IMG/VR virus record: IMGVR_UViG_3300045988_127883
Span: 1-64,000 of that record
DNA: 64,000 nt
Strand: one strand, 5' to 3'
Origin: a virus
Below the pieces are notes generated by a model. The model was not told the origin of the DNA, did not search any database, and saw only the letters and a program-made list of their open reading frames with translations. Position numbers and translations under genes: made by a program. Below are positions 12,530 through 29,511 of the stretch, in pieces (position 1 is the stretch's first letter; each line of letters opens with the position of its first letter).

Positions 12530-12772
12530 ATAATAGCCAAAAGCTATTCCGATTATTAGCCTAAGTGTTGAAACAAACACTACGTTATTTAAGAATAGAT
12601 AGTTACCTACGGATGTTTGCCCAAGTTCGTAGCTCTAAGGTAAGTGATTAAACAGTTCTGGTATTCAGGAACAGTGTTGCTTACAAAAAAAACCTTAAAT
12701 AACATTGGCGATGGGTACTAACAGAGTTTCACTCTGACTTATGTTGAATAAACATTAAAAACGTTTGTAGAT
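12530..12772 (+). ncRNA. Omega-RNA / HEARO-like structured element, copy 1, immediately upstream of IscB-1.
   Basis: A scaffold of about 200 nt (tattagcctaag...cattggcgatgggtactaacag...tgactt) is shared by four loci. Its stems covary between copies, for example gtgttgaaacaaacac vs gtgcttcgagcac vs gccttgaaacaaaggc. Placement next to IscB matches the known architecture. Confidence 0.7.
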
Positions 12773-13999
12773 ATGGTGTACGTACAAGACATAAATGGTA
12801 AACCTATGATGCCTACAACAAGGCATGGTAAGGTTAGGAGACTGCTTAAAGACAAAAAGGCAATCGTTGTAAACCTATGTCCGTTTACCATCAAATTAAT
12901 GTACGTAACATCTGATTACAAACAGAAAATTGTATTAGGCGTTGATGCTGGTACTAAACATGTTGGTCTATCGGCTACAACGAAAAGCAAAGAACTTTAC
13001 AGCAGTGAAGTTATTCTTAGAAATGATATCGTAGATCTTTTGTCTACCAGAAGGGAGCTACGAAGATCAAGACGAAATAGATTGAGATATAGAAAACCTC
13101 GTTTTGATAATAGAATAAAAAGTAAGCGTCCGGGATGGGTAGCACCTTCGGTGAAATACAAAGTAGACGCCCATATTCGTGTTATTGACAATGTATGTTC
13201 TATATTACCAATATCTCGTATTGTTATCGAAGTAGCTCAATTTGATACTCAAAAGATTAACAATCCTAATATATCAGGTAAAGAATATCAGGAGGGTGAT
13301 CAACTTGGATTTTGGAACGTTAGGGAATATGTTTTAGCAAGAGATGGACATAAATGCCAGCATTGTAAGGGAAAGTCAAAAGACCCAGTATTGAATGTTC
13401 ATCATATTGAATCACGAAAGACAGGTGGAGATTCCCCATCTAATCTTATTACCTTATGTGAAACTTGTCATAAAGAATACCATAAAGGTAATATAGATTT
13501 AAAGATCAGAAGAGGCAAGTCGCTTCGCGACGCAGCCGTAATGGGAATAATGAAATGGAGATTGTATGAAGAACTAAGGTCTAAATACAACAGAGTTTCT
13601 ATGACTTTCGGTTATGTTACAAAATACAATAGGATTAAACATGGTATTGAAAAATCTCATGTTTTCGATGCATTTGTTATTTCTAAAAACTTTGATGCTA
13701 TAAGGTTAGGATATTATTATAAAGTAAGATTAGTAAGAAGACATAATCGTCAGATCCATAAACAAAAGATTCCAAAAGGAGGGATAAAAAGACCAAATCA
13801 ATCTCCTTTTGAAGTTTTTGGTTTCCGATTGTTTGATAGGGTTATGTTTGAAAACAGTTATTATTTTATATTCGCAAGGCGTAAAACCGGTAGTTTTAAT
13901 ATTCGAGATATTGATGGTAAAAACCAAAGAGATATTACATACAAGAAATTGAAATTATCAAGGTGTAAACGCTTTATGGTACAAAAGGAAATGGATTGA
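12773..13999 (+). CDS. iscB: IscB, the OMEGA RNA-guided nuclease and Cas9 ancestor (408 aa, copy 1).
   Basis: PLMP-like KPMMPT motif. RuvC-I LGVDAGTKHVGLS, Arg-rich bridge RRELRRSRRNRLRYRKPRF and RuvC-II IVIEVAQFD. HNH with zinc CxxC pairs (CQHCKG...NVHHIES...SNLITLCETCHKEYH). RuvC-III SHVFDAFVIS. C-terminal TI-like domain. Confidence 0.85.
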   Translation: MVYVQDINGKPMMPTTRHGKVRRLLKDKKAIVVNLCPFTIKLMYVTSDYKQKIVLGVDAGTKHVGLSATTKSKELYSSEVILRNDIVDLLSTRRELRRSRRNRLRYRKPRFDNRIKSKRPGWVAPSVKYKVDAHIRVIDNVCSILPISRIVIEVAQFDTQKINNPNISGKEYQEGDQLGFWNVREYVLARDGHKCQHCKGKSKDPVLNVHHIESRKTGGDSPSNLITLCETCHKEYHKGNIDLKIRRGKSLRDAAVMGIMKWRLYEELRSKYNRVSMTFGYVTKYNRIKHGIEKSHVFDAFVISKNFDAIRLGYYYKVRLVRRHNRQIHKQKIPKGGIKRPNQSPFEVFGFRLFDRVMFENSYYFIFARRKTGSFNIRDIDGKNQRDITYKKLKLSRCKRFMVQKEMD

Positions 14000-14493
14000 T
14001 TAATTTGAATAAAAATATAGACATGAATCGTTGGTTTGAAATCACAGTAAAAGCCGAGATTGATAATATCGAGAACGGCAAAAAAAAGAAGGTAACTGAA
14101 AAGTATTTGGTAGATGCCTTATCTTATACAGAGGCAGAATCAAGATCTTTAGAGATTTTCAAGGATTTATTTCAAGTGTTCGACATTGTTAAAATAAATC
14201 CTATTAAAGTGTCGGAAATCTTCTTCAACGGAGAAGCTGAGTACTGGTATAAGTGTAAGGTAAATTACATTACACTGGATGAAAAGAAAGGTAAAGAAAA
14301 GAAAACGCCATGCTATATGTATGTCCAGGCCGGCAATCCGAAAGACGCTGAGGCTGTGTTAACTAAAGGTATGCAGGGCACGTTAGGAGACTGGAATTGC
14401 GAAGCTATTGCTGAAACGAAGATCATTGACGTATTCAAATACGATCTTCAGAAGGGAGCTGAAAAATTAGGCGAGAAGAAGAGTGAAGAGTAA
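13996..14493 (+). CDS. Hypothetical protein. The start may be the internal ATG at 14023.
   Basis: The ORF has a TTG start at 13996 and an ATG at 14023. Confidence 0.45.
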   Translation: MINLNKNIDMNRWFEITVKAEIDNIENGKKKKVTEKYLVDALSYTEAESRSLEIFKDLFQVFDIVKINPIKVSEIFFNGEAEYWYKCKVNYITLDEKKGKEKKTPCYMYVQAGNPKDAEAVLTKGMQGTLGDWNCEAIAETKIIDVFKYDLQKGAEKLGEKKSEE

Positions 14494-14722
14494 GGCTGAT
14501 GTAGTTTCCAACATAGCGCTTGTTGTGGCGATAATATCATTGCTTTCAGCAGGCGCTTTCCTTCTAATAGTGATTAAGACAGACGAGGTATCTAAATTAT
14601 TAATGAACGTACCTTATCTACTGGCTTCAGCGGGATTGTTCTTTTCAATAATATCATTATTATTCGAATGGAAAGCAAGGAAAAGAAGCTATACGTCTGC
14701 GAACGATGCGGACGAAAAGTGA
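14483..14722 (+). CDS. Small membrane protein with two predicted TM helices (79 aa).
   Basis: Two hydrophobic stretches (IALVVAIISLLSAGAFLLIVI and LLASAGLFFSIISLLF). Confidence 0.45.
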   Translation: MKSKADVVSNIALVVAIISLLSAGAFLLIVIKTDEVSKLLMNVPYLLASAGLFFSIISLLFEWKARKRSYTSANDADEK

Positions 14723-15189
14723 TGATAAGAAGTCATGGCTTATGCCAGGCTTGCAGGAGCAAAGAGTTGACTCCGAAGAAGAAAAACAGAATTACATCCA
14801 TTAAAAACAGCAGCAAGAAGAAAAAGTTAGAGAGCCCGGATTTATCCGGGTTTTTTCGTCTTATGCTGGAAGAGCTAAATAGTATTCGGATGTCTATGAC
14901 TGGTAGGGCTATTCATTTTCCTACAGTATGTAACGTATGTCACATACTTCCGAAAAGGATATATAAGTCGGTTGCCACTTGCAGAGATAATATAGTTTTT
15001 CTACATGAATCGGAGCATACGGTATTCGACATGTATCTTGACCGGATAGAATTTGATAAACTTGAAACAGAATTTCCTTTTGTGTGGAAATATGCGGTAA
15101 AGAAGGTACTGGATATGGAAAGCAGGGGAATGATTAAAGAAAGAGGTAGGTTGATTATTGAAATAATTGACAGATATAACCCCAAATAG
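14668..15189 (+). CDS. Hypothetical zinc-ribbon protein. The start is at 14668 or at the ATGA-coupled ATG at 14722.
   Basis: The N-terminus has CERCGRK...CQAC. There is a 55-nt overlap with the preceding gene. Confidence 0.45.
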   Translation: MESKEKKLYVCERCGRKVMIRSHGLCQACRSKELTPKKKNRITSIKNSSKKKKLESPDLSGFFRLMLEELNSIRMSMTGRAIHFPTVCNVCHILPKRIYKSVATCRDNIVFLHESEHTVFDMYLDRIEFDKLETEFPFVWKYAVKKVLDMESRGMIKERGRLIIEIIDRYNPK

Positions 15190-15271
15190 TATTTGAGAAA
15201 GCAGCCACAGATATTGATGAGACTGTAACTGTGTTGTATTATGTTAAAGAGGAATTAATTGAGAAATTGCG

Positions 15272-16591
15272 ATGATAGAACAGAAAATAAAAATATTGAC
15301 AGATTTAGGGTTTGTACCTATGGTGGAGGGAAAAGGAAATACGTTGTTTAGAATGAACGATGTTGTGATGTCGGTGTCAGATCCTAATCAAACACCGGAG
15401 CAGTTGAAGAAGGAGGTTATGTCTTTAATAAAGAACAGAGACATAGCGGAAAGAGGTGGACAGGTTCCAGTAGTTGAAGAGCCGGCGCCTGAGCCAGAGC
15501 AGGCCCAGAAGGAGGAACCGGAAGCTCCGGCGGAGGAAGCCGCTCCTAACCCTGGAGAAGAAGATTCGAATCCGTTTATAGAAAATCAGGAAACATTAGA
15601 GCCATTTTATATCTGTGATGAGTTAAAGAAGATCGAGACTCCCAAATTCGTAAGATTGACATTAGACGGTAATCGTTTTTATGTAAGAAAGATGGACGAT
15701 GGGACAGCCAAGATATACGCCTCGGTAACAACCATGATCAGAGACGGATTCGTAGATGACAAAACGGCTCTTCAAGAATGGAGACAGGAGATGAGGATGA
15801 TTGGTCGCAATCCGGAAGAAGTATCAGAATATGATGCAGATAAAGGAACGATCATGCACTACCTATACGGATTATACTTGACAGGTAGAGATATGGTCTT
15901 AAATCGAAGTTTTATAGTTAAGACAGTGCAAGAAGGCAAGCTTAAAATATCAAAAAAGAATCTTGACAAATTCTTTGGTAGCATAGATGATCTTGACGAT
16001 ATGATTGTTAGGGTTATGAAGTTTGCTAAATTTTGTTCGGAGTATAAGGTTAAGCCGATGATGATTGAAAGAATATTATCATTAGAAGATTATTTGGTAG
16101 CTACGCCGATAGATGCGATGGTTAAAATGACATTCAAGTACAAAGAAGAAGGTTATTTTGGAGCCGTGTATCAAAGGGCTACGGGGCAGTTCAAAAAAGG
16201 AGATCCGAAGAAGGAAGTGAGAGAAGTGGAGAAAGAAGAGATTGTTATCTTAGATTTTAAATCAGGTGACATACGAAATGAACATGCTTTTCAATTGGAG
16301 GCTGAAAGGAGAATGGTTAAAAACTGGTACGGAATTGATGCACGTATTATGAATTTTTCTCCAAAAAGCACGAACAGTAAAGGTTATACGCTAAAAGAAT
16401 GGTCTGATAAAAATGCTGCTATGGAGAAGGCAGACTGTGTATTCCAACAAGGGATGTTGAATCATATCAGAAAAGACAAGAGGTTCAAAGTGAGAAAGGG
16501 AGTGCTGAATATCAATAAGCCTTACAATGAAGAGGATCATATTGTCGTATATGATATTGCTGAGGAAATGTCTAAAAGATTTGTAATATAA
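15272..16591 (+). CDS. Hypothetical protein (439 aa) with an acidic Pro/Glu-rich linker. It may carry a PD-(D/E)xK-like motif (IVILDFKSGD...QLEAE).
   Basis: Long ORF. The nuclease call is tentative. Confidence 0.5.
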   Translation: MIEQKIKILTDLGFVPMVEGKGNTLFRMNDVVMSVSDPNQTPEQLKKEVMSLIKNRDIAERGGQVPVVEEPAPEPEQAQKEEPEAPAEEAAPNPGEEDSNPFIENQETLEPFYICDELKKIETPKFVRLTLDGNRFYVRKMDDGTAKIYASVTTMIRDGFVDDKTALQEWRQEMRMIGRNPEEVSEYDADKGTIMHYLYGLYLTGRDMVLNRSFIVKTVQEGKLKISKKNLDKFFGSIDDLDDMIVRVMKFAKFCSEYKVKPMMIERILSLEDYLVATPIDAMVKMTFKYKEEGYFGAVYQRATGQFKKGDPKKEVREVEKEEIVILDFKSGDIRNEHAFQLEAERRMVKNWYGIDARIMNFSPKSTNSKGYTLKEWSDKNAAMEKADCVFQQGMLNHIRKDKRFKVRKGVLNINKPYNEEDHIVVYDIAEEMSKRFVI

Positions 16592-16600
16592 ATAAGCATT

Positions 16601-17614
16601 ATGCTTGATTTTAGAAGATACGAAAACGTACCCCGGTTTCAACTTGACCGCAGGCCGGGCAGGAGCCGACTGAAGCTAACCTGCCCAGCTTGCGGGAAAA
16701 GCCGGTGCCTCACTCCTTATATTGATGTGGCAACAGGTCAGGTTGTTGGAAACGAGTTCGGAAGATGCGATCACGAACGGACTTGCGGTTACGATAAACG
16801 ACCCACTGGTAAGGATGTAGGTGACAAAGATCTTTGGATTTCGGGAAATAAGTGTATAAGAGCTTATCGTCCTCCTATAAATCCTGACGTTGTAAATTAC
16901 ATACCTTTTAGCGAGTTTGAGAGGACTGTAGTCCCAGACAATAGAAACACCGTATTTAGATTTTTATCGTCTCTATGGGGAAAAGAAAGGGTATCTGATG
17001 TATTCAGAAGGTATCATGTCGGAACAATGGACTTATGGGGATGGAAAGGGTGTTGTATATTCTGGCAGATAGATAAGGACTTTGTATGTAGAACTGGCAA
17101 GATCATGGACTTTTATATAAAGACCGACAGCCAGGGGAATGAGATTGATGTAAAAAGAGTGAAAGAAAAAGACGGTGACAATGAGCGGCCTCATGTTATG
17201 TTTTATCACTCGTTGCATGCAAGGGACTTCTTGTTTAGACAATGCCTGTTCGGAGAGCATCTTCTAAGCCAGTATCCGGATAAGGTGGTTAATCTGGTGG
17301 AATCAGAAAAGACGGCTATTATATGCGCTGTGAATAAACCAGATGAATTATTTGTGGCCACCGGAGGGTTGCAGAATCTAAGGCCGGAAGTGATAGATGT
17401 TTTAAAAGATAGAAAGACTGTAGCTTTTCCGGACAAAGGACAAGCATTTGAGACATGGAGTAAAAAGATAGATGGGATGATGATGAAGTCAAGGATAAAA
17501 GTATCAGACTATCTTCAAAATGTTGAAAATGTAGGAGACGGAGATGATGTGGCAGATTTGATAATTAATAACAAGGTAAAAGAGAAATATCATGAGCCTG
17601 GATGTTTATATTAA
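16601..17614 (+). CDS. Putative DNA primase-like protein with an N-terminal zinc-ribbon and a TOPRIM-like domain (337 aa).
   Basis: CPACGK...CDHERTCGY zinc-binding. VNLVESEKTAIICAV...VATGG...AFPDKGQ resembles TOPRIM with a conserved Glu and an acidic motif. Confidence 0.5.
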   Translation: MLDFRRYENVPRFQLDRRPGRSRLKLTCPACGKSRCLTPYIDVATGQVVGNEFGRCDHERTCGYDKRPTGKDVGDKDLWISGNKCIRAYRPPINPDVVNYIPFSEFERTVVPDNRNTVFRFLSSLWGKERVSDVFRRYHVGTMDLWGWKGCCIFWQIDKDFVCRTGKIMDFYIKTDSQGNEIDVKRVKEKDGDNERPHVMFYHSLHARDFLFRQCLFGEHLLSQYPDKVVNLVESEKTAIICAVNKPDELFVATGGLQNLRPEVIDVLKDRKTVAFPDKGQAFETWSKKIDGMMMKSRIKVSDYLQNVENVGDGDDVADLIINNKVKEKYHEPGCLY

Positions 17615-17945
17615 GAACAAGAAGAAAGAAGAGGATCGTGAATGGGTTGCAAACATCACCCACAACATGAACAAGATGGCACAAAGAATATTCGTATCGG
17701 AAAATAAAGAAACGCTGTACGATTATGTTTGGAGACCAGAAGAATTGTATAAAGAAATATATACCAATGAGATGAAGAATGTACTTACAAAAGGTATATG
17801 TATTATGATCTCTAAGAGAAAAAGTCTTTTGAGATACGAGCCGGAAAACGGATGGGGGTCTTATGATTCATTTCTTAAGTTTCTTATCGAATATAAAGAG
17901 GCGTGTGAAGATAATCCAGGTTATATAATTGAAGCAAGCAGATAA
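17592..17945 (+). CDS. Hypothetical protein (117 aa).
   Basis: Intact ORF. Confidence 0.4.
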   Translation: MSLDVYIKNKKKEEDREWVANITHNMNKMAQRIFVSENKETLYDYVWRPEELYKEIYTNEMKNVLTKGICIMISKRKSLLRYEPENGWGSYDSFLKFLIEYKEACEDNPGYIIEASR

Positions 17946-18204
17946 TATGGAAAATTACAAAAACACTTTAAACGAGGTAGTGGTGATCGAATCGTCACCA
18001 GAAACGTATTTTGTTTACGCTATTCGTAATGCTATTCGTATCTCTAAATGCGCGTATCCGACAGCCAAGAAAGTAATTTTCAAAAGAGAGGACGTAGAGG
18101 TAGAGATCTCAGAAATGGAAACTGAAAGCAGTTTGTATGAAAAGTTTAAAGAAAAACAAAAGAATAGGGTATGGAACTTAATGAGCGCCAACAACGGGTT
18201 TTAA
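17929..18204 (+). CDS. Hypothetical protein (91 aa).
   Basis: Intact ORF. Confidence 0.4.
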   Translation: MKQADNMENYKNTLNEVVVIESSPETYFVYAIRNAIRISKCAYPTAKKVIFKREDVEVEISEMETESSLYEKFKEKQKNRVWNLMSANNGF

Positions 18205-18737
18205 GAGGCGAAATTTGTCCTTATTGCGGAAGAGAAACTGAGCTGGTAAATGCCGATAAAATATATAGCAGAAAAGGCTTAGGGATGGTTATGATGTGCA
18301 AACCATGCAACGCTTATGTCGGTGTTCATGAATCAGGGCCGAATAAGGGAAAAGCTAAAGGCTGGCTCGCGGGGCCATCACTGAGATCTCTTAAGATAAG
18401 AGTCCATGCCGAACTTGACAGACTATGGTCTACGCCGGAGGAACGGAAAAGGATGTATAAAGATTTATCTGAATTTCTCTCTATACCGGAAGAATACACA
18501 CATATAGGTATGTTCGGCGAGAAGACGATGGGAAAAATCTTTCAGTTCTGTCATGTAAACAAAGAGCGATCAGGTTCGAGAATAGAATGGCATAAGCCTG
18601 GAGATAAGTGCCCTAATAAAAACAATCAAATAGTGTCAGGCAGTAGCGCATGCAGAGGATGTCCTGAGTATCTTCATGATGAGAAAGACGGGTATGTCTG
18701 GTGTGATCCTGATATGAGCTACGGCAGGTTGAAATAG
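18171..18737 (+). CDS. Hypothetical zinc-ribbon protein (188 aa).
   Basis: CPYCG...CKPCN, plus C-terminal CRGCPEY. Confidence 0.45.
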   Translation: MELNERQQRVLRGEICPYCGRETELVNADKIYSRKGLGMVMMCKPCNAYVGVHESGPNKGKAKGWLAGPSLRSLKIRVHAELDRLWSTPEERKRMYKDLSEFLSIPEEYTHIGMFGEKTMGKIFQFCHVNKERSGSRIEWHKPGDKCPNKNNQIVSGSSACRGCPEYLHDEKDGYVWCDPDMSYGRLK

Positions 18738-18789
18738 GGCGCGAATTGCCTATCTTTGTGCTATTATCAATCAAAAAAAATGTAAGAAG

Positions 18790-19065
18790 ATGGGCAGATC
18801 AACAGAGTACTACAGGACTCATCCCGAAGCCAGGAAGAAAAAGGCTAAAAAGGACAAGGAGATAAATGCCAGACCGGAACAGAAAGCCAAACGCCGGGAG
18901 CTTGGTCGTAAAAACTACGAAACGGACAAGAAGAAGGGCAAGGGCTGGAGGAAAGGCAAGGATTGTTCTCATACCAAGAACGGTCTTAGGTATAAATCAG
19001 TAAAAGCTAATAGGGGATCCAAATCGGATACGAAAGGTGACAAAAATGCAAGATCTCCGAAATAA
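18790..19065 (+). CDS. Highly basic small protein (91 aa, Lys/Arg-rich). It may bind nucleic acid.
   Basis: Composition is visibly K/R dominated. Confidence 0.4.
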   Translation: MGRSTEYYRTHPEARKKKAKKDKEINARPEQKAKRRELGRKNYETDKKKGKGWRKGKDCSHTKNGLRYKSVKANRGSKSDTKGDKNARSPK

Positions 19066-19103
19066 TATACAAAAAGACAAATAGAATTTTACTTTTTTGT
19101 ATA

Positions 19104-19350
19104 TCCAGTTTTACTGGCCGGTTATTAGCCTAAGTGCTTCGAGCACTACGTTATCGGAGAATGTATAGTTACCCTGGAGTGTTTATCCAAGCTCCAGGCT
19201 CTAAGGCAGGTGATTAAACAGTATTTGTATTTGGATACAGTGTTGCTTGTAAGAAACCTCTGAATAACATTGGCGATGGGTACTAACAGATTGAAATATA
19301 TCTGACTTACTACGAATAGTAGTTATTAATTAAAAATTAGTTTGTAACAA
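19104..19350 (+). ncRNA. Omega-RNA / HEARO-like structured element, copy 2, upstream of IscB-2.
   Basis: Same conserved scaffold with compensatory stem changes. Ends at the IscB ATG. Confidence 0.7.
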
Positions 19351-20610
19351 ATGGTGTACGTACAAGACATAAATGGTAAACCTATGATGCCTACAACAAG
19401 GCATGGTAAGGTTAGGAGACTGCTTAAAGACAAAAAGGCAGTTGTTGTCAACTTATGTCCGTTTACCATCAAATTAATGTACGTTACATCTGATTACAAA
19501 CAGGAAATTGTGTTAGGCGTTGATGCTGGAACTAAACATGTTGGTCTATCAGCTACGACGAAAAGCAAGGAGCTTTACGCAAGTGAAGTTATTCTGAGAA
19601 ATGATATCATTAATTTGCTTTCGACAAGAAGAGAATTGAGGAAAGCGAGAAGGAATAGGATAAGGTATAGAAAGCCGAGATTTAATAACAGAATAAAGTC
19701 GAAGCGCCAAGGATGGATAGCTCCATCTGTTTGTCAAAAAATTGATTCCCATATTAAGGTTGTCAGTTTTATACATTCTATCCTTCCTGTTTCAAGATTA
19801 ATTATAGAAACTTCTCAGTTTGATACTCAAAAGATTAAGAATCCTGATATATTGGGAAAAGAATACCAGCAAGGCGAGCAACTTGGATTTTGGAATGTTC
19901 GAGAATACATACTTTTTCGTGATGGTCACAAATGCCAGCATTGTAAGGGAAAATCGAAAAATCCTATTCTTAATATCCACCATATCGAATCGCGAAAGAC
20001 TGGTGGAGATTCACCTTCTAATTTGATTACTTTATGTGAAACTTGCCATAAGGAGTACCATAAGGGGAATATTAAATTGAAGGTAAAAAGAGGAACTTCA
20101 CTTCGTGATGCGGCCGCGATGGGAATCATGAAATGGAAGTTATTCGATAAATTGAAGTCATTATATCCAAACGTTAGTATGACATTTGGATATATAACGA
20201 AACATAATCGGATAAAACATAGAATCGAAAAGTCCCATGTTTCTGATGCATTTGTTATCTCAGAGAATTTTAAAGCAAAAAGGCTTGGATATCATTTCAA
20301 GATGAAACTCACACGGAGACATAATAGGCAAATTCATAAAATGAAGATGCAAAAGGGAGGGATCAAAAGAATGAATCAATCACCATTTAGGGTATTTGGG
20401 TTTAGACTATTTGATAAAGTAATGTTTTATGGTGAAAAACGATTTATTTACGCAAGAAGACTTTCTGGTAGTTTTAAAATAAAAGATATAGATGGGGAAA
20501 ATGAGAAAAATATATCATATAAAAAATTAAAATATATAGGACATGGATTGACTTCTATTGAAGTAGATCAATCATATGGATATAAAGCAAATACACATAA
20601 TAACGAATAA
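19351..20610 (+). CDS. iscB: IscB (419 aa, copy 2). It is the most diverged copy and has a C-terminal extension.
   Basis: All motifs as in copy 1 are retained (RuvC-II IIETSQFD, HNH NIHHIES/CETCHKEYH, RuvC-III SHVSDAFVIS). The first ~90 nt are identical to the other copies. Confidence 0.85.
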   Translation: MVYVQDINGKPMMPTTRHGKVRRLLKDKKAVVVNLCPFTIKLMYVTSDYKQEIVLGVDAGTKHVGLSATTKSKELYASEVILRNDIINLLSTRRELRKARRNRIRYRKPRFNNRIKSKRQGWIAPSVCQKIDSHIKVVSFIHSILPVSRLIIETSQFDTQKIKNPDILGKEYQQGEQLGFWNVREYILFRDGHKCQHCKGKSKNPILNIHHIESRKTGGDSPSNLITLCETCHKEYHKGNIKLKVKRGTSLRDAAAMGIMKWKLFDKLKSLYPNVSMTFGYITKHNRIKHRIEKSHVSDAFVISENFKAKRLGYHFKMKLTRRHNRQIHKMKMQKGGIKRMNQSPFRVFGFRLFDKVMFYGEKRFIYARRLSGSFKIKDIDGENEKNISYKKLKYIGHGLTSIEVDQSYGYKANTHNNE

Positions 20611-20615
20611 TCACA

Positions 20616-21746: not shown

Positions 21747-21761
21747 AAAAAAATAAGAACC

Positions 21762-22364
21762 ATGAGACTAACAGTAGAAGAAAACGAATACCTGATAAGT
21801 AAGTTCCTTTTGGTTCTTACTGAGTTTGCAGGGGATGAAAGAGAGATGTTTTTAATCAACTCCATACATGACAAGGCGGTGGCGGATATGAATTATCGTC
21901 TTCCGTCTTTAATAAGCAGAGAACGTAAAAGACGAGTCATTGAGCTCCTTAAAGAAGGGACCAGAATAATCAAGGACTTTTCCGGCTATGCAGGTGATAT
22001 GGGTATGATTAACGAATACGATCGTCTAAAGAAAGAAATAGGAACCGTCCAAGATCAGCTTGGCGACGTAGAAGGTCAACTTCGGGCAGCCGGCGAAGTA
22101 ATCAAGAAAGAGCTTGATATGATTGCTGACCGAATCAAAGAAGACCTCCTCGACCGAGAGCTGGCTAAAAGTAATGCTGAGGCTGAAAGAAAAGCCAAAG
22201 TAGATCCGAGATACGAAGTAGCTTTAGGTGATTACAAGGAGATGTTGGAAGTGATTTTTACAACCAGAAACAAGTATTCTACGGTAGATTCTGTACATGA
22301 CGATCTTCGCCAGTCGGTATCTACCGGTAGAAATTCGATTATTAAAGAAGGGTACAACAGTTAA
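21762..22364 (+). CDS. Hypothetical coiled-coil protein (200 aa).
   Basis: Intact ORF. Confidence 0.45.
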   Translation: MRLTVEENEYLISKFLLVLTEFAGDEREMFLINSIHDKAVADMNYRLPSLISRERKRRVIELLKEGTRIIKDFSGYAGDMGMINEYDRLKKEIGTVQDQLGDVEGQLRAAGEVIKKELDMIADRIKEDLLDRELAKSNAEAERKAKVDPRYEVALGDYKEMLEVIFTTRNKYSTVDSVHDDLRQSVSTGRNSIIKEGYNS

Positions 22365-22379
22365 AAACAAGGAGGGAAT

Positions 22380-22577
22380 ATGGAAAAGAAGGAATTTAAA
22401 GTAGGAGAAGTATTTGATGCCGGACTTGTAAGATTAAAATGTGTGGAAGGTGATACATGCGATAGGTGTATATTCAAAGATTACGATTCTTGTTCATGTA
22501 CAGACATAATTGTTGGTCCATGTGGACATGTTGATAGACAAGATAACAAGAATGTTATTTTTATTAAAGCTGATTAA
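22380..22577 (+). CDS. Hypothetical Cys-rich small protein (65 aa).
   Basis: ORF with aaggagg SD. Confidence 0.4.
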   Translation: MEKKEFKVGEVFDAGLVRLKCVEGDTCDRCIFKDYDSCSCTDIIVGPCGHVDRQDNKNVIFIKAD

Positions 22578-22579
22578 GA

Positions 22580-23293
22580 ATGTACATCAATTTCAGACAA
22601 CTTGCAGCATCAGACATGACCCCTAATGATCTTGCCAATCTTCTTGCCATAAGACAGAAGGATTCGGTTATGATCGAAGCTATGCCAGAAGAAGACGCTG
22701 GTAGATATATAGAGCTTGGCCTGGTTGAGAAATTAAAATCAGGCGTGATGAGATTGACCAACAAAGGAACGTCTTTTGTGAATTATATAGAGACACCGGA
22801 GATGACAGACGAGGTTCTGGAAACGTTGAAGATTATGATAGGAATGTACGAATCATATTCAAAAGACATAGGTGTCAGCAGAAAAGAAGCGGAATCCAGA
22901 TTGTGTTGGTTTATGGGTAACACCTCATTCAAGAAAGAGGTCATACTTCAGGTAACGGAATCTTATATAGCAGAGTCAGGAGATTATACAATGAGCTTAT
23001 GTAACTTCATATGGAAACCGCCTTCTCAGGCTTTTTCAGTCCATATGAACCTTAAAAATTCAAAGCTCTTTGACTTAATAGCTGAAAAATTTAAGATCGC
23101 TACCGAGCCTTATTTGGAGTCTAAGAAGAATAAGGAAATGGATTGGTTGTTTGCCGTATCTAAATTGCCTACGCCGCCGGCTAAAGGCAATCCGGATTAT
23201 TTGTTTACCGGAAGCTCGGAGACAGATAAAGAGCGATTGAAAAACATAAAAACGTATTTATTTAACAAAATTAGAAAGCAATGGAAAAAGTAA
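22580..23293 (+). CDS. Hypothetical protein (237 aa).
   Basis: Intact ORF. Confidence 0.45.
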   Translation: MYINFRQLAASDMTPNDLANLLAIRQKDSVMIEAMPEEDAGRYIELGLVEKLKSGVMRLTNKGTSFVNYIETPEMTDEVLETLKIMIGMYESYSKDIGVSRKEAESRLCWFMGNTSFKKEVILQVTESYIAESGDYTMSLCNFIWKPPSQAFSVHMNLKNSKLFDLIAEKFKIATEPYLESKKNKEMDWLFAVSKLPTPPAKGNPDYLFTGSSETDKERLKNIKTYLFNKIRKQWKK

Positions 23294-23532
23294 GAATCAG
23301 AAAGATAATAGAGGATATAATTATTACTCAGTTTCTTAATTCGGAAATAGATATAGTTCATGAAGAAGATGTGTCGTTTAAAGAACTTGGATTAGATTCT
23401 GTTGATCGGATTGAGCTTGATGTGATGGTGGAACAAAAATTCAATATTGTTATTATTGATTATGATATGGAGACCATCAAAGATATGACTGATCTTGTTT
23501 ACAAAATAATAACAGAAGGATATGGGAAGTGA
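23281..23532 (+). CDS. Acyl-carrier-protein-like protein (83 aa).
   Basis: ELGLDSVDRIELDVMVEQKFNIVI matches the ACP phosphopantetheine-attachment region (DLGxDSLDxVELvM..EeeF). Confidence 0.5.
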   Translation: MEKVRIRKIIEDIIITQFLNSEIDIVHEEDVSFKELGLDSVDRIELDVMVEQKFNIVIIDYDMETIKDMTDLVYKIITEGYGK

Positions 23533-24016
23533 CATAATTTTATGCATGGCTTTAATAGCGTCATTTGCTTTTGTTATACAGTTTTTGTTGTCGATATTAG
23601 GATCTGATCTGGATACGGATATTGACATTGACAGTGCTTCTGATTTAAGTATGTCTTTGTCGGACATCATATCATTCAAGGGCATAACACATTTCATCCT
23701 TGGATATAGCTGGACTACCTACTTTTCGGGTTCTCATTTAGTAGGGGTTGTGATAGGGTCGTTTTTCTTTATCGTTTTGTTTTACGTATATAAGTTACTT
23801 CTTAAGTTAAAACAAGAAATGGTGTACGAATGTCCAGAAGATTTAAATGGCAGAGAAGTGGAGATAGTATTTAGATCAGGAAAGAACCATTATATGGTAA
23901 ATATTGTGAAAAACGGGAGACAGGAACAGATGAGAGTAGGGTGCTTGTCTGGGAAAAATTACAAAAATGGTGACAAGGTGAACATAAAATACGAAGAAGG
24001 AGAATTAAGTATCTAA
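23522..24016 (+). CDS. NfeD-like membrane protein, the usual partner of SPFH/flotillin proteins (164 aa).
   Basis: N-terminal TM helices plus a C-terminal soluble Gly/Val-rich domain. It sits immediately upstream of the SPFH gene, as in yuaF-yuaG (floT) type pairs. Confidence 0.5.
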   Translation: MGSDIILCMALIASFAFVIQFLLSILGSDLDTDIDIDSASDLSMSLSDIISFKGITHFILGYSWTTYFSGSHLVGVVIGSFFFIVLFYVYKLLLKLKQEMVYECPEDLNGREVEIVFRSGKNHYMVNIVKNGRQEQMRVGCLSGKNYKNGDKVNIKYEEGELSI

Positions 24017-24049
24017 TTTTTTTATACCAACAATTAAATTTTAAAAGTT

Positions 24050-25750
24050 ATGACAACAATCATGTACGTGTCAGCTATCTTAGCTGTAGTGATTATTTTG
24101 ACAATCATCGGAGTCTTATCAAGGTATCGTAGATGCAAGCCTAATCAGGTTTTGGTCGTTTACGGTAAGACAGGTGGGGAAAAGAAATCGGCGAAATTAT
24201 ATCATGGTGGAGCAGCATTCGTGTTGCCTATTATCCAAAGCTATGATATTTTATCTATGGAGCCTATGCAAATAGATTGTAGGCTTACTGGTGCTTTGTC
24301 ATCTCAGAATATTAGAGTAGATGTGCCTACAACTATTACAGTAGCTATCAGTACAAATCCTGAAATCATGCAAAATGCAGCAGAAAGACTTTTGGGGATG
24401 GATACCGAATCTACTGAAAATCTTATTACAGACATCGTTTACGGTCAGATGCGTTTGATTATTGCCGAAATGACAATCGAAAAACTTAATTCTGATAGGG
24501 ATGAGTTTTTGGATAAGGCAAGAAAAAACATTGATAACGAACTTAATAAATTGGGTCTTTATCTTTTGAACATTAACATCAGTGACATCAGAGATGAAGC
24601 CGGCTACATCATGAATCTTGGTAAAGAGGCTGAAAGCAAGGCTCTGAACGAAGCACAGGCTAATATCGAAGAACAGGAAAAGCTGGGTGCTATTAAGATT
24701 GCTGTACAACAGAAGGAAAAAGAAACGGCTGTAGCTAATACCCAAAAAGAGCAAGAGATTCAAATTGCCTATACTGAAAAAGAAAAAGAAACGGTAGTAG
24801 CTGAAACAAAGAAAGAAAAAGAAGTAGCTTTGGCTTTAACCGATAAAGAAAAACAGATCGGTGTAGCTCAAGCCGATAGAGATAGGGCTGCGGCTATAGC
24901 AAAGACTTTGGCTGACAAGGAATCAGCGATTGCAAGATCTAAGGCGGAACTTGAAGTAAACAAAGCTGAAGCCGAAAGAATGGAAGAAGTTGGAAAGAAT
25001 AAAGCTGAAGCTGACAAACAAGCAGCTATAGCAATACAAGACTCTGAAGCTCAGATTAAGAAAGCTGAGGCTGAGAAAAATGCTTCTGTAGGCTACAACA
25101 ATGCCCAGAAAGAGGTTGCTGTATCAGAATCAGAATTGCAGGTTATCAAAGCTCAATCAGAAAAGAAGGCCGGAGAAGAAAAAGTTAAATCGGAAGCGGC
25201 TGTAAAAACGGCAAAAGAGCTTGCTGATAAAGAAGTGGAAGAAGCTAAGGCTAAGAAAGTTCAGGCTGCGCTTAAGGCTGAAAAGATTGTGCCGGCTGAA
25301 ACCCAGAAGGAAGAGGCTATCTTACAAGCTGATGCCGAGGCCGAGAAGATCAAACGCCGGGCTGAGGCTGAGGCAGCAGCACATTTGGCAAAAGCTGAGG
25401 CAGAGGCAAAAGCTATTCAGATGAAGCTGGAGGCAGAAGCCGACGGTAAGAAAAAGTCGTTAATGGCAGAAGCCGACGGATTTAAGGCTATGGTGGAAGC
25501 AGCAGAATCCAATCCCCAGATCGCCATCCAGTACAAGATGGTTAATCAGTGGAAAGAAATTGCTGGAGAACAGGTTAAAGCATTTGAGCACATTAACCTC
25601 GGAAATATCACGGTATTTGACGGCGGTCAGAACAGTACCGGTAATTTCCTTAACAATGTTGTCAAGACCGTCGCTCCGGCATTGGGAGTCATCGATCAGC
25701 TTCCGATTGCAGATACTTTAAAGAAATTAAAAGGAGATGACAAAAAATAA
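24050..25750 (+). CDS. Flotillin-like SPFH / band-7 protein with a long Ala/Glu/Lys-rich coiled coil (566 aa).
   Basis: N-terminal TM and SPFH core (NQVLVVYGKTGG...PIIQSYDILSMEPMQIDC...RVDVPTTITVAIS). Followed by flotillin-type EA-rich repeats (AEAEKIKRRAEAEAAAHLAKAEAEAKA). Confidence 0.7.
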   Translation: MTTIMYVSAILAVVIILTIIGVLSRYRRCKPNQVLVVYGKTGGEKKSAKLYHGGAAFVLPIIQSYDILSMEPMQIDCRLTGALSSQNIRVDVPTTITVAISTNPEIMQNAAERLLGMDTESTENLITDIVYGQMRLIIAEMTIEKLNSDRDEFLDKARKNIDNELNKLGLYLLNINISDIRDEAGYIMNLGKEAESKALNEAQANIEEQEKLGAIKIAVQQKEKETAVANTQKEQEIQIAYTEKEKETVVAETKKEKEVALALTDKEKQIGVAQADRDRAAAIAKTLADKESAIARSKAELEVNKAEAERMEEVGKNKAEADKQAAIAIQDSEAQIKKAEAEKNASVGYNNAQKEVAVSESELQVIKAQSEKKAGEEKVKSEAAVKTAKELADKEVEEAKAKKVQAALKAEKIVPAETQKEEAILQADAEAEKIKRRAEAEAAAHLAKAEAEAKAIQMKLEAEADGKKKSLMAEADGFKAMVEAAESNPQIAIQYKMVNQWKEIAGEQVKAFEHINLGNITVFDGGQNSTGNFLNNVVKTVAPALGVIDQLPIADTLKKLKGDDKK

Positions 25751-25944
25751 ATACAATGGCCCAAGGTTACACTTGGGCCTAATTGAAGAAGCAAAAGCAG
25801 CATTTATAGATTTCATGCCAGCAGGAATAGTGATTTTTAGTGCTTTACTAATTACGATATTTTTAACATGGATTTTGGACAAGATTTAGAACCAGAAGAA
25901 CTGACCAAGCATTATGATCAGTGTTATAACCCCAAATAGTATTA

Positions 25945-26240
25945 AACCAATATAATTCTATTATAAAAGTTTAATACATCTCTTTAAGAGATCGGGTTAT
26001 TAGCCTAAGCCTTGAAACAAAGGCTACGTTATTTAAGAATAGATAGTTACCTACGGATGTTTGCCCAAGTCTGTAGCTCTAAGGTAAGTGATTAAACAGT
26101 TCTGGTATTCAGGAACAGTGTTGCTTATTCAAAACCTTAAATAACATTGGCGATGGGTACTTACAGGAGAAATCCTGACTTATCCCTAACGGGATTTACA
26201 TCTACCAAGGAGACCGGAAGGTCTCCGAGGGGATGTATTA
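25945..26240 (+). ncRNA. Orphan omega-RNA / HEARO-like element (copy 3) with no downstream IscB ORF. It ends in a strong hairpin (ggagaccggaaggtctcc).
   Basis: Full conserved scaffold present and closest to copy 1. The next ORF (26284) is unrelated. The 5' flank (25945-25976) is homologous to the copy-4 5' flank. Confidence 0.6.
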
Positions 26241-26283
26241 AAACATATGAATAGCTTTAAATATATTTAATAGAATATGAGAT

Positions 26284-26631
26284 ATGGAATTGATTTTGAA
26301 ACAGAAGAAGAGGAGGATGAAGAGTATGACTGATGAGGAATTTGTATTGGATAATAAGAAAAAGGTTGTTGTAAGAAAAAGAATATCTTATTTAAACAAA
26401 GGTGATAAAGTGTGGATCGTGTCTTCCGATGGGTATCTACTACACACGGACGTAGTTAGAGCCGACCGGGGCCGATCTTATGTGGATATAGACGGGATAC
26501 TGTATTGGAAGCGAGGATTAGATGGCAAACATCGTAATCGTAATAACTACATGCAGTTTGCCATGACACCAGAAGACGGTAAGAAGTATGTCGTATATTA
26601 CCCGGAAGGATTTAAAGACAATGACTTATGA
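26284..26631 (+). CDS. Hypothetical protein (115 aa).
   Basis: Intact ORF. Confidence 0.45.
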   Translation: MELILKQKKRRMKSMTDEEFVLDNKKKVVVRKRISYLNKGDKVWIVSSDGYLLHTDVVRADRGRSYVDIDGILYWKRGLDGKHRNRNNYMQFAMTPEDGKKYVVYYPEGFKDNDL

Positions 26632-27656
26632 TGGTCCCGGAAACACATTTGCTATATAAGGAGTTTAATGGTGTAAAACGTCTTGCCATATCTTATTCCC
26701 AGATAGATACGTTTCTTACCTGTCCAATGAAATGGTATAAGACTTACGTAGAGGGCAAAAGGTCTACAGAAAAACAAGAAGCTACGTCTTATGGTACGGT
26801 TATCCATAAGACACTGGAATACTTTTTTAAGAACGGAAGACAGCCTTCTGGTAAAGACCTTGGAGAAGCAATAAGTTACTATGCTTACCAGGAAGACATA
26901 CCTTGGCAATCACCGGAAAATATGATGATAGCCATGAAACAATCTGGAGAACTTCTTGCTTGGATTGTGGATCTATTTAAAAAAGACGGGAATAGGTTTA
27001 TGATAGCTGATAGTGATCTTAATCCCTGTGAGAAACTTATTAGACACGGCGCTATAGTTGGAGTCGAAGAAGATTTTGTGCTGCCGTACCGTCTTCCTAA
27101 GCCTGTTGATATAAATGGGACCGTTCATACTCATGTGTACATAGTAGGATCGGTGGATCTTCATCTGGCTATAAAGAGCAAGAACGTAGTTCACCATTAT
27201 GTCATAGATTGGAAATCAGGTAATAAGGTTTTTGATTCCAAGAAGTTGGAAACGAATTTACAGCATCCTATATATTCGTTTTACATCTATAGAAAATATG
27301 GTGGGGTTCTGCCAGATATGAACATCTATTTCTTTACCAGGACCAGGCAGTACCAAAAGGTTAAAGTAGATGAAGAACGTAAAACAAAATCTATAGAGAT
27401 GCTAAACGATACATTATCCAAAATGTATGATTTTGAAGATAATAGTGTAAAATCATTTCAAGCGTACATCCAGGGAGCAGAAGGAGCCAGGTATAGCAAG
27501 CGGCGTGCCACCCTAAGCCAGCCTGTTTCGCAAAACAAGCTACCCTGCCCGTCAGCACTGTGTTATTATTGTGACTTTGGATTACATAACAAAAACGAAT
27601 GCCCTTTCTCTTCGGATTGGGATCCGTCTAAAAAGATAAAACGATATCTGAAATAA
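26628..27656 (+). CDS. Cas4-like / RecB-family PD-(D/E)xK nuclease with a Cys cluster (342 aa).
   Basis: N-terminal SYSQIDTFLTCPMKWY. Core VGSVDLHLAIKS...IDWKSG (D...D/E-x-K). C-terminal CPSALCYYC...ECPF. One N-terminal plus three C-terminal Cys is the Cas4-type FeS arrangement. Confidence 0.6.
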   Translation: MMVPETHLLYKEFNGVKRLAISYSQIDTFLTCPMKWYKTYVEGKRSTEKQEATSYGTVIHKTLEYFFKNGRQPSGKDLGEAISYYAYQEDIPWQSPENMMIAMKQSGELLAWIVDLFKKDGNRFMIADSDLNPCEKLIRHGAIVGVEEDFVLPYRLPKPVDINGTVHTHVYIVGSVDLHLAIKSKNVVHHYVIDWKSGNKVFDSKKLETNLQHPIYSFYIYRKYGGVLPDMNIYFFTRTRQYQKVKVDEERKTKSIEMLNDTLSKMYDFEDNSVKSFQAYIQGAEGARYSKRRATLSQPVSQNKLPCPSALCYYCDFGLHNKNECPFSSDWDPSKKIKRYLK

Positions 27657-27932
27657 CATTAAAACAATATAATTCCATTATAAGGTTTTAATGTACCAGA
27701 AATGGTCCGGATATTAGCCTAAGCCTTGAAACATAGGCTACGTTATTTGAGAATATATAGTTACCTACGGATGTTTACCCAAGTCTGTAGCTCTAAGGAT
27801 GGTGATTAAACAACAGTTGTATTTGGATTGTAGTGTTGCTTACTAAAAACCTTAAATAACATTGGCGATGGGTACTAACAGGATGGAATATTCCTGACTT
27901 ATGTTGAATAAACATTAAAAACGTTTGTAGAT
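27657..27932 (+). ncRNA. Omega-RNA / HEARO-like structured element, copy 4, upstream of IscB-3.
   Basis: Same scaffold. It starts directly after the upstream gene's stop codon. The 3' 40 nt plus the start of IscB are identical to copy 1. Confidence 0.7.
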
Positions 27933-29153
27933 ATGGTGTACGTACAAGACATAAATGGTAAACCTATGATGCCTACAACAAGGCATGGTAAGGTTAGGAG
28001 ACTGCTTAAAGACAAAAAGGCAATCGTTGTAAACCTATGTCCGTTTACCATCAAATTAATGTACGTAACATCTGATTACAAACAGAAAATTGTATTAGGC
28101 GTTGATGCTGGTACTAAGCATGTTGGTCTATCAGCTACGACGAAAAGCAAAGAACTTTACGCAAGCGAAGTGACTTTAAGAAATGATATTGTAGATCTTT
28201 TGTCTACCAGAAGAGAGCTACGAAGATCGAGACGAAATAGATTGAGGTATAGAAAACCTCGTTTCAATAATAGAATAAAAAGCAAGCGTCCAGGATGGAT
28301 AGCACCTTCGGTGCAGTACAAAGTAGACGCTCATATTCGTGTTATTGATAATGTTTTTTCTATACTGCCTGTATCCCGTATTGTTATTGAAGTAGCTCAA
28401 TTCGATATACAAAAGATTAAGAATCCTGAGATATTCGGTAAAGAGTATCAGGAGGGTGATCAACTTGGTTTTTGGAACATCAGAGAGTATGTCTTAACAA
28501 GGGATGGACACAAATGCCAGTATTGTAAAGGAAAGTCAAAAGACCCAGTATTGAATGTTCATCATCTTGAGTCTCGAAAAACCGGAGGGGATTCCCCATC
28601 TAATCTTATTACCTTATGTGAAACTTGTCATAAAGAATACCATAAAGGTAATATAGATTTAAAGATCAGAAGAGGCAAGTCGCTTCGCGACGCAGCCGTA
28701 ATGGGGATTATGAAATGGAGGTTGTATGAAGAGTTAAAATCCAGATACGACAGAGTTTCTATGACGTTTGGTTACATCACGAAACATAATCGGATTAAAT
28801 ACGGGATTGAAAAATCCCATACATCCGACGCGTTTGTCATTTCTAAGAACATTAATGCGAAACGAATCGAACGTCAATATTTAAAACGTTTAATTCGTAG
28901 ACATAATAGACAAATACATAAAATGAAAATTTTAAAAGGAGGGAAGAAGAAAAACAATCAAGCTCCTTTTGAGGTTTTCGGATTTAGATTGTTTGATAAA
29001 GTGTTGTATGATAATAAAATATGTTTTGTTTATGGAAGGAGAAAATCAGGGAATTTCAATATCAGGGATTTCAACGGAGAAAACCCGAAGGATGTTTCAC
29101 GCAAAAAGTTTAAACTCATTAGAGGGAAGAGGCATCCGATTATATTAAAGTAA
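27933..29153 (+). CDS. iscB: IscB (406 aa, copy 3).
   Basis: Same motif set (RuvC-II IVIEVAQFD, HNH NVHHLES/CETCHKEYH, RuvC-III SHTSDAFVIS). About 185 nt at the 5' end are identical to copy 1, then it diverges. Confidence 0.85.
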   Translation: MVYVQDINGKPMMPTTRHGKVRRLLKDKKAIVVNLCPFTIKLMYVTSDYKQKIVLGVDAGTKHVGLSATTKSKELYASEVTLRNDIVDLLSTRRELRRSRRNRLRYRKPRFNNRIKSKRPGWIAPSVQYKVDAHIRVIDNVFSILPVSRIVIEVAQFDIQKIKNPEIFGKEYQEGDQLGFWNIREYVLTRDGHKCQYCKGKSKDPVLNVHHLESRKTGGDSPSNLITLCETCHKEYHKGNIDLKIRRGKSLRDAAVMGIMKWRLYEELKSRYDRVSMTFGYITKHNRIKYGIEKSHTSDAFVISKNINAKRIERQYLKRLIRRHNRQIHKMKILKGGKKKNNQAPFEVFGFRLFDKVLYDNKICFVYGRRKSGNFNIRDFNGENPKDVSRKKFKLIRGKRHPIILK

Positions 29154-29190
29154 ATGAATAGATTTAATAAATTTAATAGAAAAACGCATT

Positions 29191-29505: not shown

Positions 29506-29511
29506 GGGATT

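Follow-up and report, generated by a model that had tools for sequence, protein, structure and literature searches.

Four IscB-type mobile elements with predicted flank-derived guides in an epsilon crAss-like gut phage, proposed agents of RNA-guided homing

The first 64,000 nucleotides of the IMG/VR virus record IMGVR_UViG_3300045988_127883 (the whole stretch analysed, hereafter the window) carry three genes for the RNA-guided nuclease IscB and four omega RNAs of the HEARO family, one of which stands without a nuclease gene. These components form four discrete units with defined ends, whose left flank varies from one insertion site to another, whose right flank invariably opens with ATG, whose nuclease genes evolve under purifying selection and which are present in some phage genomes and absent from others; for two of their guides, a target exists in a sequenced relative. 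In the reading that we consider probable, they are non-autonomous mobile elements of the IS200/IS605 family (ISC-type), which take their guide from the phage sequence next to which they sit, would cut that same flank followed by ATG in genomes lacking the element, and would in this way home between co-infecting phages. Sequence similarity assigns the host genome to an epsilon crAss-like phage of the gut: the sole GenBank phage record matched by positions 12000-30000 (megablast, 93% identity, 71% coverage) is OR575929, entered as 'phage csAssE-Sib', a phage named crAssE-Sib and placed among the epsilon crAss-like phages in PMC11054128, and the uncovered 29% corresponds to the four elements.

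The three IscB open reading frames (ORFs) lie on the plus strand at 12773-13999 (copy 1, 408 residues), 19351-20610 (copy 2, 419 residues) and 27933-29153 (copy 3, 406 residues), where a first-pass annotation, made by a model from the letters and translated ORFs without database searches, had placed them, and every IscB motif listed by that annotation can be read in the translations (KPMMP, LGVDAGTKHVGLS, IVIEVAQFD, two CxxC pairs, HH..N..H and SH..DAFVIS). In all three, the Pfam family RRXRR (PF14239) is matched over its full length (1-174 of 174, E-values of 1e-58 to 1e-60), and an HNH domain (PF01844) occupies residues 195-238, inserted between the RuvC segments. Searching the PDB sequences with phmmer retrieved OgeuIscB and other IscB entries at E-values of 1e-42 to 1e-45 (1.3e-44 for copy 1), and the alignment with OgeuIscB pairs GKPMMPT with GKPLMPT in the PLMP domain, LGVDAG with LGIDPG in RuvC-I, IVIEV with VVLEL in RuvC-II, VHHIE with YHHVV in HNH and SHVFDAF with DHYLDAY in RuvC-III (window protein given first); the arginine-rich bridge helix also aligns with that of solved IscB proteins. 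When the window copies are aligned with representatives at 36-56% identity (63 sequences in total), residues D58, E153, H210, H211, N224, H233, H296 and D299 are invariant or nearly so, and the zinc-binding cysteines C195, C198, C229 and C232 are near-invariant. All the catalytic residues, as the annotation had held, and all four cysteines are kept in the three copies.

An AlphaFold2 model of copy 1, computed from the 63-sequence alignment, has a predicted local distance difference test score (pLDDT) of 92 and a predicted template modelling score of 0.87. Its whole chain superposes on OgeuIscB (8CSZ_D) in Foldseek, with an E-value of 4e-29 and a template modelling (TM) score, normalised to the query, of 0.80; other IscB and IsrB structures rank next, and Cas9 appears only distantly, with query-normalised TM scores of 0.56 or lower. 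Since a sequence search of the C-terminal 87 residues against the PDB gave no match, the C-terminal domain was settled by structure: residues 350-408 are beta-rich (pLDDT 90-95) and fall within the full-length superposition, so that the model places there the target-adjacent-motif-interacting domain that had been proposed from the sequence. Taken together, sequence and model identify the three ORFs as full-length IscB proteins with every catalytic residue present. Their GenBank phage homologues, at no more than 53% identity, are labelled 'HNH endonuclease' or 'hypothetical protein' and would be better labelled IscB; one 90% protein cluster holds 3063 member sequences. The three copies share 75-83% protein identity (83% between copies 3 and 1), with a ratio of nonsynonymous to synonymous divergence (dN/dS) of 0.08-0.17 (0.08-0.11 for copy 2 against the other copies) and a dS that reaches saturation for copy 2, which indicates paralogues that separated long ago and evolve under purifying selection.

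A scan of the whole window with Rfam gave exactly four matches, all to HEARO (RF02033) and all on the plus strand, at 12530-12722 (113 bits), 19062-19287 (101 bits), 25926-26164 (113 bits) and 27669-27879 (94 bits), against a gathering score of 83. Three of them end 50-65 nt ahead of an IscB start codon, in line with the omega-RNA-like leaders that had been described from the sequence. The pairing of one leader with each nuclease gene accounts for only these three, and the fourth RNA, at 25926, belongs to a solo element of 358 bp with no IscB downstream (the next ORFs encode a 115-residue protein without a Pfam match and a PD-(D/E)XK exonuclease), so that there are four RNAs for three IscB genes. 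The Rfam core, a corrected first helix, two 5' hairpins and two 3' hairpins were projected onto an alignment of 29 non-redundant omega regions, and in this joint fold 92% of the alignment cells pair, against 35-45% in controls in which the 3' partners were slid by 1-3 columns. Double-sided changes affect 29 pairs (4-12 in the slid controls) and 159 cells (9-18 in the controls), and none of 500 shuffles reached the observed covariation score. The three covarying stems pointed out by the first-pass annotation are borne out by this analysis, namely GUGUU/AACAC replaced by GCCUU/AAGGC, CAGAG/CUCUG replaced by CAGGA/UCCUG or CAGAU/AUCUG, and the hairpin that precedes the scaffold on its 5' side; an additional 3' hairpin also covaries (AUGUU/AACAU, ACUAC/GUAGU and AUCCC/GGGAU). 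The pseudoknot is invariant (four of its five pairs pair) and is thus uninformative on covariation.

The extended scaffolds supported by this covariation run on the plus strand from 12472 to 12760 (omega RNA 1), from 19053 to 19335 (omega RNA 2, with compensatory changes in several stems) and from 27644 to 27920 (omega RNA 3). With the relatives aligned on the conserved TTAGCCTAAG, similarity starts at 12472 with AT(AA/TC/TT)TCGCGAATAAT, 58 nt 5' of the Rfam start, and the segment beginning there supplies the genuine 5' strand of helix one, in which ATAATCG pairs with CGATTAT at 12550-12556 and encloses a long extra hairpin together with the hairpin ATAGC..GCTAT. Omega RNA 1 thus comprises this first helix, two 5' hairpins, the HEARO core with its pseudoknot and two 3' hairpins. 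The corresponding helix is formed by ATATCTG and CCGGATAT in the third IscB element, from 27644, and by ATAACCC and GGGTTAT in the solo type, from 25926. The leaders had therefore been correctly located by the annotation, but for two copies their true start lies 25-60 nt upstream of the one given (12472 instead of 12530, and 27644 instead of 27669). That BLAST similarity ends 25-60 nt 5' of the Rfam start could also have meant that the guide lies inside the mobile unit; this was rejected, because what lies in those extra nucleotides is one more hairpin and the 5' side of the first helix, for which Rfam had aligned the wrong sequence.

Close relatives of these proteins are encoded on 302 IMG/VR stretches, from which 80 loci were kept (81-99% protein identity, on contigs of 4-253 kb, mostly 80-160 kb, many of them sharing no flank homology with the window), and the ends of the elements were set from about 20 independent insertion contexts. 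IscB element 1 (E1 type) covers 12472-14022 on the plus strand (1551 bp), from ATAATCG at the left end to ATATAGAC at the right end; across at least 15 unrelated flanking contexts its homology starts at 12471-12476 and stops at 14017-14028, and similarity to crAssE-Sib breaks at 12469 and 14023. IscB element 2 (E2 type, 19053-20615, plus strand, 1563 bp) has a degenerate left terminus and is missing from crAssE-Sib and from many IMG/VR genomes. The solo omega-RNA element (E3, 25926-26283, plus strand, 358 bp) contains no ORF; its omega scaffold is followed by a GC hairpin, situated about 60 nt before the right end, and the right end is like that of E4. It is also found at other sites (L021, L038, L040, L051 and L069). 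IscB element 3 (E4 type, 27644-29190, plus strand, 1547 bp) recurs at a different genomic site in seven loci (L054, L056, L064, L065, L068, L070 and L077), with homology over exactly 27644-29193. The ends are discrete, with a junction ambiguity of only the 2 nt AT and no target-site duplication; the omega-RNA end is rich in hairpins, and the right end of E1 and E4 is AT-rich, without a clear conserved hairpin.

On the right side, the elements abut an ATG that is invariant in 29 of 29 unique flanks (about 20 independent sites), followed at the fourth position by G in 16, A in 9, T in 4 and C in none, and the 16 positions of the left flank show no conservation among the same 29. In the window, this ATG is the start codon of the DUF4494 gene after element 1 (14023-14025, plus strand; the crAssE-Sib coding sequence opens at the same ATG), of the DnaB-like helicase gene after element 2 (20616-20618, plus strand) and of the gene for a 104-residue membrane protein after element 3 (29191-29193, plus strand; the crAssE-Sib orthologue uses the same ATG). 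Elsewhere it mostly opens an ORF of 80-900 residues, the exceptions being a tRNA, a terminator and a few short ORFs; in six loci of one phage group (L042, L045-L048 and L050, around 5487-5570) ATGG comes after the IscB element, and directly behind it lies what, judged by eye, appears to be a tRNA gene. That the ATG is not always a start codon argues for a target motif, and not only a by-product of insertion at gene starts. HEARO elements were reportedly noted beside ATGA or GTGA as early as 2009. Phage IscB families that are more distant (51-61% identity) also have an ATG shortly past their stop codon. We predict from these flanks that the target-adjacent motif is ATG(D), which is ordinary for the IscB family, since the motif of the ISGst5 IscB is TTCAT, located 5' of the transposase-defined left end and equal to ATGAA on the iscB strand (PMC10055086), and that of IsrB is NTGA (PMC9581776).

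As the elements begin with the scaffold, the guide would come from the phage flank, in agreement with the layout that Meers et al. (PMC10055086) give for IscB elements. Taking a length of 16 nt, an assumption carried over from OgeuIscB, the predicted guide of omega RNA 1 is the phage flank TAAGTATTTCGTGGCC (12456-12471, plus strand), which adjoins the scaffold on its 5' side without being part of the element, and that of the solo omega RNA is CATTATGATCAGTGTT (25910-25925, plus strand). The latter matches the empty site of crAssE-Sib at 16 of 16 positions, followed by ATGG, and the E4 guide finds there a match of 15 of 16, followed by ATGA. Within the window, each 16-nt guide matches its own flank only, followed by ATA or ATC, as the first bases of the elements themselves are ATA, ATC or ATT and differ from ATG at the third position. 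The left flank of E1 (12462-12471 in the window; 5690-5699 in L002) varies even between near-identical genomes, through deletions that reach precisely to the element boundary and measure 10 bp in the window (relative to L002), 6 bp in L005 and about 35 bp in L008, for which self-nicking, repair scars and transposase errors are possible origins.

The genome of crAssE-Sib lacks all four elements, in that the window segments 12470-14022, 19051-20666, 25928-26282 and 27646-29275 have no counterpart in it. For the solo element, this provides an exact empty site: GATCAGTGTT is directly joined to ATGGAATTG in crAssE-Sib, and the two are separated by 358 bp in the window. At this same site, 110 IMG/VR contigs are empty and 14 are occupied. 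On a neighbour-joining tree of the 1.6 kb flanks, 11 occupied alleles are scattered and need about 10 changes of state, and one of them differs from two empty alleles by 1 nt in 1600. Given this scatter and this nearly identical pair, precise gain or scarless loss at the solo site has happened recently and repeatedly. The first-pass annotation had spoken of a multi-copy OMEGA system maintained by a virus; its carriage by an epsilon crAss-like phage stands, but instead of being 'maintained' the components are better seen as selfish mobile elements, resident in phage genomes and polymorphic among them.

At two of the other sites the neighbouring sequence also differs. Element 3 (27646-29275, compared with L001 15454-15717) fills exactly the interval which, in crAssE-Sib, is bounded by the ATG of a 56-residue ORF and by that of the following gene, the small ORF being replaced and not interrupted. 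Next to element 2, the first ~17 codons of the DnaB-like helicase (20616-20666, compared with L001 8797-8830) are wholly different between carriers and non-carriers of the element. This difference may reflect a tract of co-conversion, or else a target that has diverged, with loss of the ATG motif from the empty allele.

The copies within the window have also exchanged sequence. Over their initial 225 nt (12773-12997, 19351-19575 and 27933-28157), the three ORFs are 95-99% identical, against 68-80% for the remainder, and within this stretch E4 of the window resembles E1 of the window (98.7%) more than it resembles the orthologous E4 of L054 (94.7%). Constraint at the RNA level on the start of the ORF was rejected as the cause, since distant members of the family are only 82-84% identical there; we conclude that the identity most plausibly results from gene conversion between co-resident copies. 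The earlier statement that the copies are not recent duplicates thus describes old, diverged lineages correctly, and has to be amended in that these lineages are mosaics. The scaffold of the solo element is likewise a mosaic of E1-like and E4-like segments, with its last 45 nt resembling the right end of E4, and we read this element as an internal-deletion derivative, like the PATE-type miniatures of Meers et al. Frameshifts occur in the elements of several relatives (L006, L020, L026, L067 and L137).

These observations, combined with what is established for characterised members of the IscB family, suggest how the elements may work. Read-through transcription from the co-oriented phage gene upstream would turn the flank into the 5' guide of the omega RNA, and the IscB-omega RNA complex would then cut any DNA in which this ~16-nt flank runs straight into ATG(G/A/T), as it does in the uninterrupted allele. 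The occupied locus would be spared, as its motif position reads ATA or ATC. In a co-infected cell, the break in the element-free phage would be repaired from the element-bearing genome, so that the element is copied in, by analogy with phage homing endonucleases and plasmid TnpB; such repair may drag along or replace small neighbouring genes, and this would explain why small ORFs have been replaced. For the solo omega element, IscB would be provided in trans. Reaching new sites would require a Y1 transposase (TnpA) acting in trans, none being encoded in the window, and copies within one genome would exchange sequence by gene conversion. Insertion in the sense orientation and exactly 5' of start codons would keep the downstream ORF intact and may explain why the elements are tolerated in a tightly packed genome. 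Spread driven by the nuclease and independent of TnpA has been shown for TnpB on plasmids, according to work cited in PMC13565253, and homing into co-infecting phages is listed there as a theoretical mode. A bolder version, to which we attach only tentative credence, is that the IscB of crAss-like phages constitute self-retargeting, RNA-guided homing gene drives, moving between co-infecting phages with no transposase, with ATG serving as the motif and guide-only elements parasitising the nuclease.

Several findings weigh against homing by these elements. Exact joins of left and right flank were found in IMG/VR zero times for each of E1, E2 and E4, and relative to crAssE-Sib the three IscB elements replace 34-262 bp, including the 56-residue ORF and the 3' part of an 86-residue ORF; their history thus seems to include deletions or co-conversion, or else plain recombination moved them. 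A clean empty site was found for none but the solo element, so that for the three IscB elements simple insertion, relative to a sampled genome, is only a possibility. The E1 guide flank has no ATG-flanked match in crAssE-Sib, and the 10-bp deletion in this flank changes the guide predicted for the window. The E2 type occurs at one site only, in 4 contigs, one of which is frameshifted, and its first helix is degenerate, its 5' strand ATCTCCG being unable to pair with CCGGTTAT and competing with an internal stem instead; the relatives L095 and L126 have an intact helix (ATAACCT/AGGTTAT) at this place, and we read the E2 terminus as damaged. A recent sweep of the solo element is unsupported, its inserts being as diverged as their flanks (4.8% and 4.5%, respectively), and its presence or absence could come from ordinary phage recombination or from scarless excision by TnpA, without cutting by IscB. 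Moreover, some 20 distinct sites imply true transposition, beyond homing alone. Finally, motif reading, guide length, use of the solo RNA in trans, cleavage and homing are predictions, drawn from sequence comparison and from analogy.

Regarding accompanying genes, no Y1 transposase was found by Pfam among the 41 window ORFs of 100-280 residues (19 families matched), nor was any TnpA detected by phmmer in six-frame ORFs of the window and of the 80 loci (within 6 kb of the element), using the TnpA sequences of IS200 and IS608 as queries. There is also no CRISPR-like repeat array in the window, and both absences are as the first-pass annotation had reported. Lack of TnpA in cis marks the elements as non-autonomous and is compatible with membership in IS200/IS605: about 98.5% of iscB genes have no tnpA nearby and about 1.5% have one (PMC10055086). 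Proteins of 406-419 residues with no repeat array also set the system apart from type II CRISPR-Cas9.

A second type of OMEGA nuclease is present as a TnpB remnant at 45117-45966 on the minus strand, recognised by the Pfam families OrfB_IS605 and Cas12f1-like TNB. It is 5'-truncated and frameshifted, having lost the N-terminal third, and it retains the RuvC D/E/D motifs and an intact right end (...GGGAGTATGTCAAAC); Rfam gave no RNA match at this remnant. Two relatives (L005 and L013) carry the same 851-bp TnpB segment with a further 386 bp ahead of it, inserted at another site, and we infer that the two parts together form the full-length TnpB element. In the window, the remnant is preceded by the junction GGCGAATTTGTTTTC at ~45957 (minus strand); in L078 (5701) an IscB element follows the same left flank, and several other phages (L054-L077) have an IscB element and a 101-residue ORF in place of the remnant. 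This position looks like a hotspot with alternating OMEGA elements.

Part of the evidence would also follow from a transposon lifestyle alone, in which a Y1 TnpA supplied in trans by the host or by another element moves the elements, and IscB restores them after excision by cutting the donor joint on the sister copy, with no homing between phages. Insertions at about 20 independent sites, all beside ATG, with a terminus AT(A/T/C) that resembles the motif, carry the signature of TnpA target choice (PMC10055086), and the scarless empty site of the solo element as well as the rarity of tnpA near iscB genes in general point the same way. No Y1 transposase, however, turned up in the 64-kb window or within 6 kb of the 80 related elements, and phage genomes are multicopy and recombining, so that both modes would act on the same substrates. 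We think it rather unlikely that this is the full account; it overlaps with homing and differs from it just in the template and the empty site that matter. The targets in crAssE-Sib could alternatively mean that IscB has been domesticated as a weapon, which the phage keeps with its guides for cutting the empty alleles of competitors (marker exclusion or interference competition). The guides do match a closely related, real phage at two sites with the right motif, several copies are under purifying selection, and phage homing endonucleases act in this manner (PMC13565253); but each element is polymorphic, and close relatives often lack it or carry it in decayed form (the frameshifts listed above, and 110 of 124 solo-site contigs empty), so that selfish turnover fits better than a fixed beneficial trait, and we hold domestication to be improbable.

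Signs of decay do exist, in the degenerate terminus of E2, in the frameshifts or truncations of some relatives and in the broken TnpB of the window, and they would be expected if the IscB genes and their RNAs were inactive relics persisting as recent or neutral insertions. Such an explanation has to contend with three intact ORFs that keep every catalytic residue, with a dN/dS of 0.08-0.17 at a dS that reaches saturation, with RNA helices that still pair through compensatory changes and with a protein cluster of thousands of near-identical members, and we regard it as very improbable. The reading that we dismiss almost entirely is that of protein-guided, free-standing HNH homing endonucleases standing beside a conserved structured leader, which the GenBank label 'HNH endonuclease' and a position between conserved phage genes, typical of homing endonuclease genes, might suggest. 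The ORFs are not plain HNH homing endonucleases, because their split RuvC, bridge helix and HNH align to solved IscB and the full-length fold matches too; the PLMP motif is also present and the leader is a HEARO omega RNA, and with this the annotation's choice of IscB over an HNH enzyme lacking a split RuvC is upheld. The RNA-guided homing elements proposed above remain our preferred reading.

Compared with IscB-omega RNA elements such as ISGst5 from Geobacillus stearothermophilus and OgeuIscB, the window elements share the domain order (PLMP, split RuvC, bridge helix, HNH and C-terminal motif-reading domain), the position of the omega RNA (RF02033) upstream of iscB, the guide taken from the outside flank, the co-orientation with the upstream gene, the lack of tnpA, a motif beginning with ATG (ATGAA in the published case) and a terminus similar to the motif yet distinct from it. 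They differ in residing in a lytic-type crAss-like phage instead of a bacterial chromosome, in the smaller protein (406-419 residues against 496), in an RNA that has a further long 5' hairpin within its first helix and two more hairpins on the 3' side, in insertion exactly at start codons, and in the several diverged copies that undergo gene conversion within a 17-kb stretch. Viral IscB as such has been published: Goltsman et al. (2022, PMC9755519) reported IscB with HEARO RNA on viral or prophage contigs, which made up more than 16% of HEARO contigs. That work gives the statistic only, whereas boundaries, motifs, insertion sites, solo RNAs and lineage are worked out here for epsilon crAss-like phages.

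Like the PATE-like miniatures (PMC10055086), the solo element keeps both ends and the omega RNA, has no ORF and would need a nuclease and a transposase in trans; unlike them, it resides in a phage, derives from an IscB-type and not a TnpB-type element, and has an empty allele that is abundant in the same phage population. With the homing endonuclease genes of T-even phages (seg and mob) and with the spread of TnpB/IS605 on plasmids, the elements share the predicted cut-and-copy into an element-free homologue with co-conversion, and the position between conserved genes. In contrast to seg and mob, recognition is predicted to rely on a flank-derived guide RNA and a 3-4-nt motif and not on the protein, and self would be told from non-self by the presence of the element and not by substitutions. 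In crAssE-Sib, two TnpB genes ('transposases') were reported, with no mention of IscB or HNH (PMC11054128); OMEGA-family nucleases are thus common to both phages, the window having its own TnpB remnant, and the difference is that crAssE-Sib has no IscB and is empty at all four sites. A literature search returned no report of IscB in crAss-like phages. On every testable point, the window elements belong to the IscB/HEARO class of non-autonomous IS200/IS605-type elements, a system of known kind that does not change the understanding of how IscB acts. What is new here concerns specifics: the phage lineage, the presence of several copies, their position at start codons, a correction to the 5' end of the RNA, and a solo element whose natural target is abundant.

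Some further features of the window concern the phage itself. Two giant ORFs lie on the minus strand, at 37746-44168 and 51543-58259 (2140 and 2238 residues), and the sign of the GC skew flips at ~36 kb, at the boundary of divergent gene blocks, as expected of a crAss-like phage. At the extreme edge (1-111) there is a tandem array of a 20-bp unit, AAAATTCAATATGTACCAAC, with 5.6 copies and 96% matches, which may represent an iteron, origin or terminal repeat. A sub-threshold Rfam match to the Bacteroidetes FopS sRNA at 48183-48255 (minus strand; 31.8 bits against a gathering score of 56, E-value 0.036) is probably due to chance, and would suit a Bacteroidales host. The region 46000-47600 is seemingly gene-poor, holding small ORFs only and no convincing RNA family.

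The window offers a well-resolved natural OMEGA case in a very abundant lineage of human-gut phages, for which exact ends and guide sequences are available along with the predicted ATG(D) motif, and for which a sequenced relative contains real empty-site targets. The compact IscB variants (406-419 residues), with their short motif, may also be of interest as editors. Homing between co-infecting viruses, driven by IscB and independent of a transposase, has hitherto been theoretical and now becomes testable. If it does occur, every phage gene start would be a potential harmless landing pad, and viruses would here provide the first natural case of 'non-restorative' OMEGA homing, one that helps to drive the mosaic gene content of abundant phages of the human gut.

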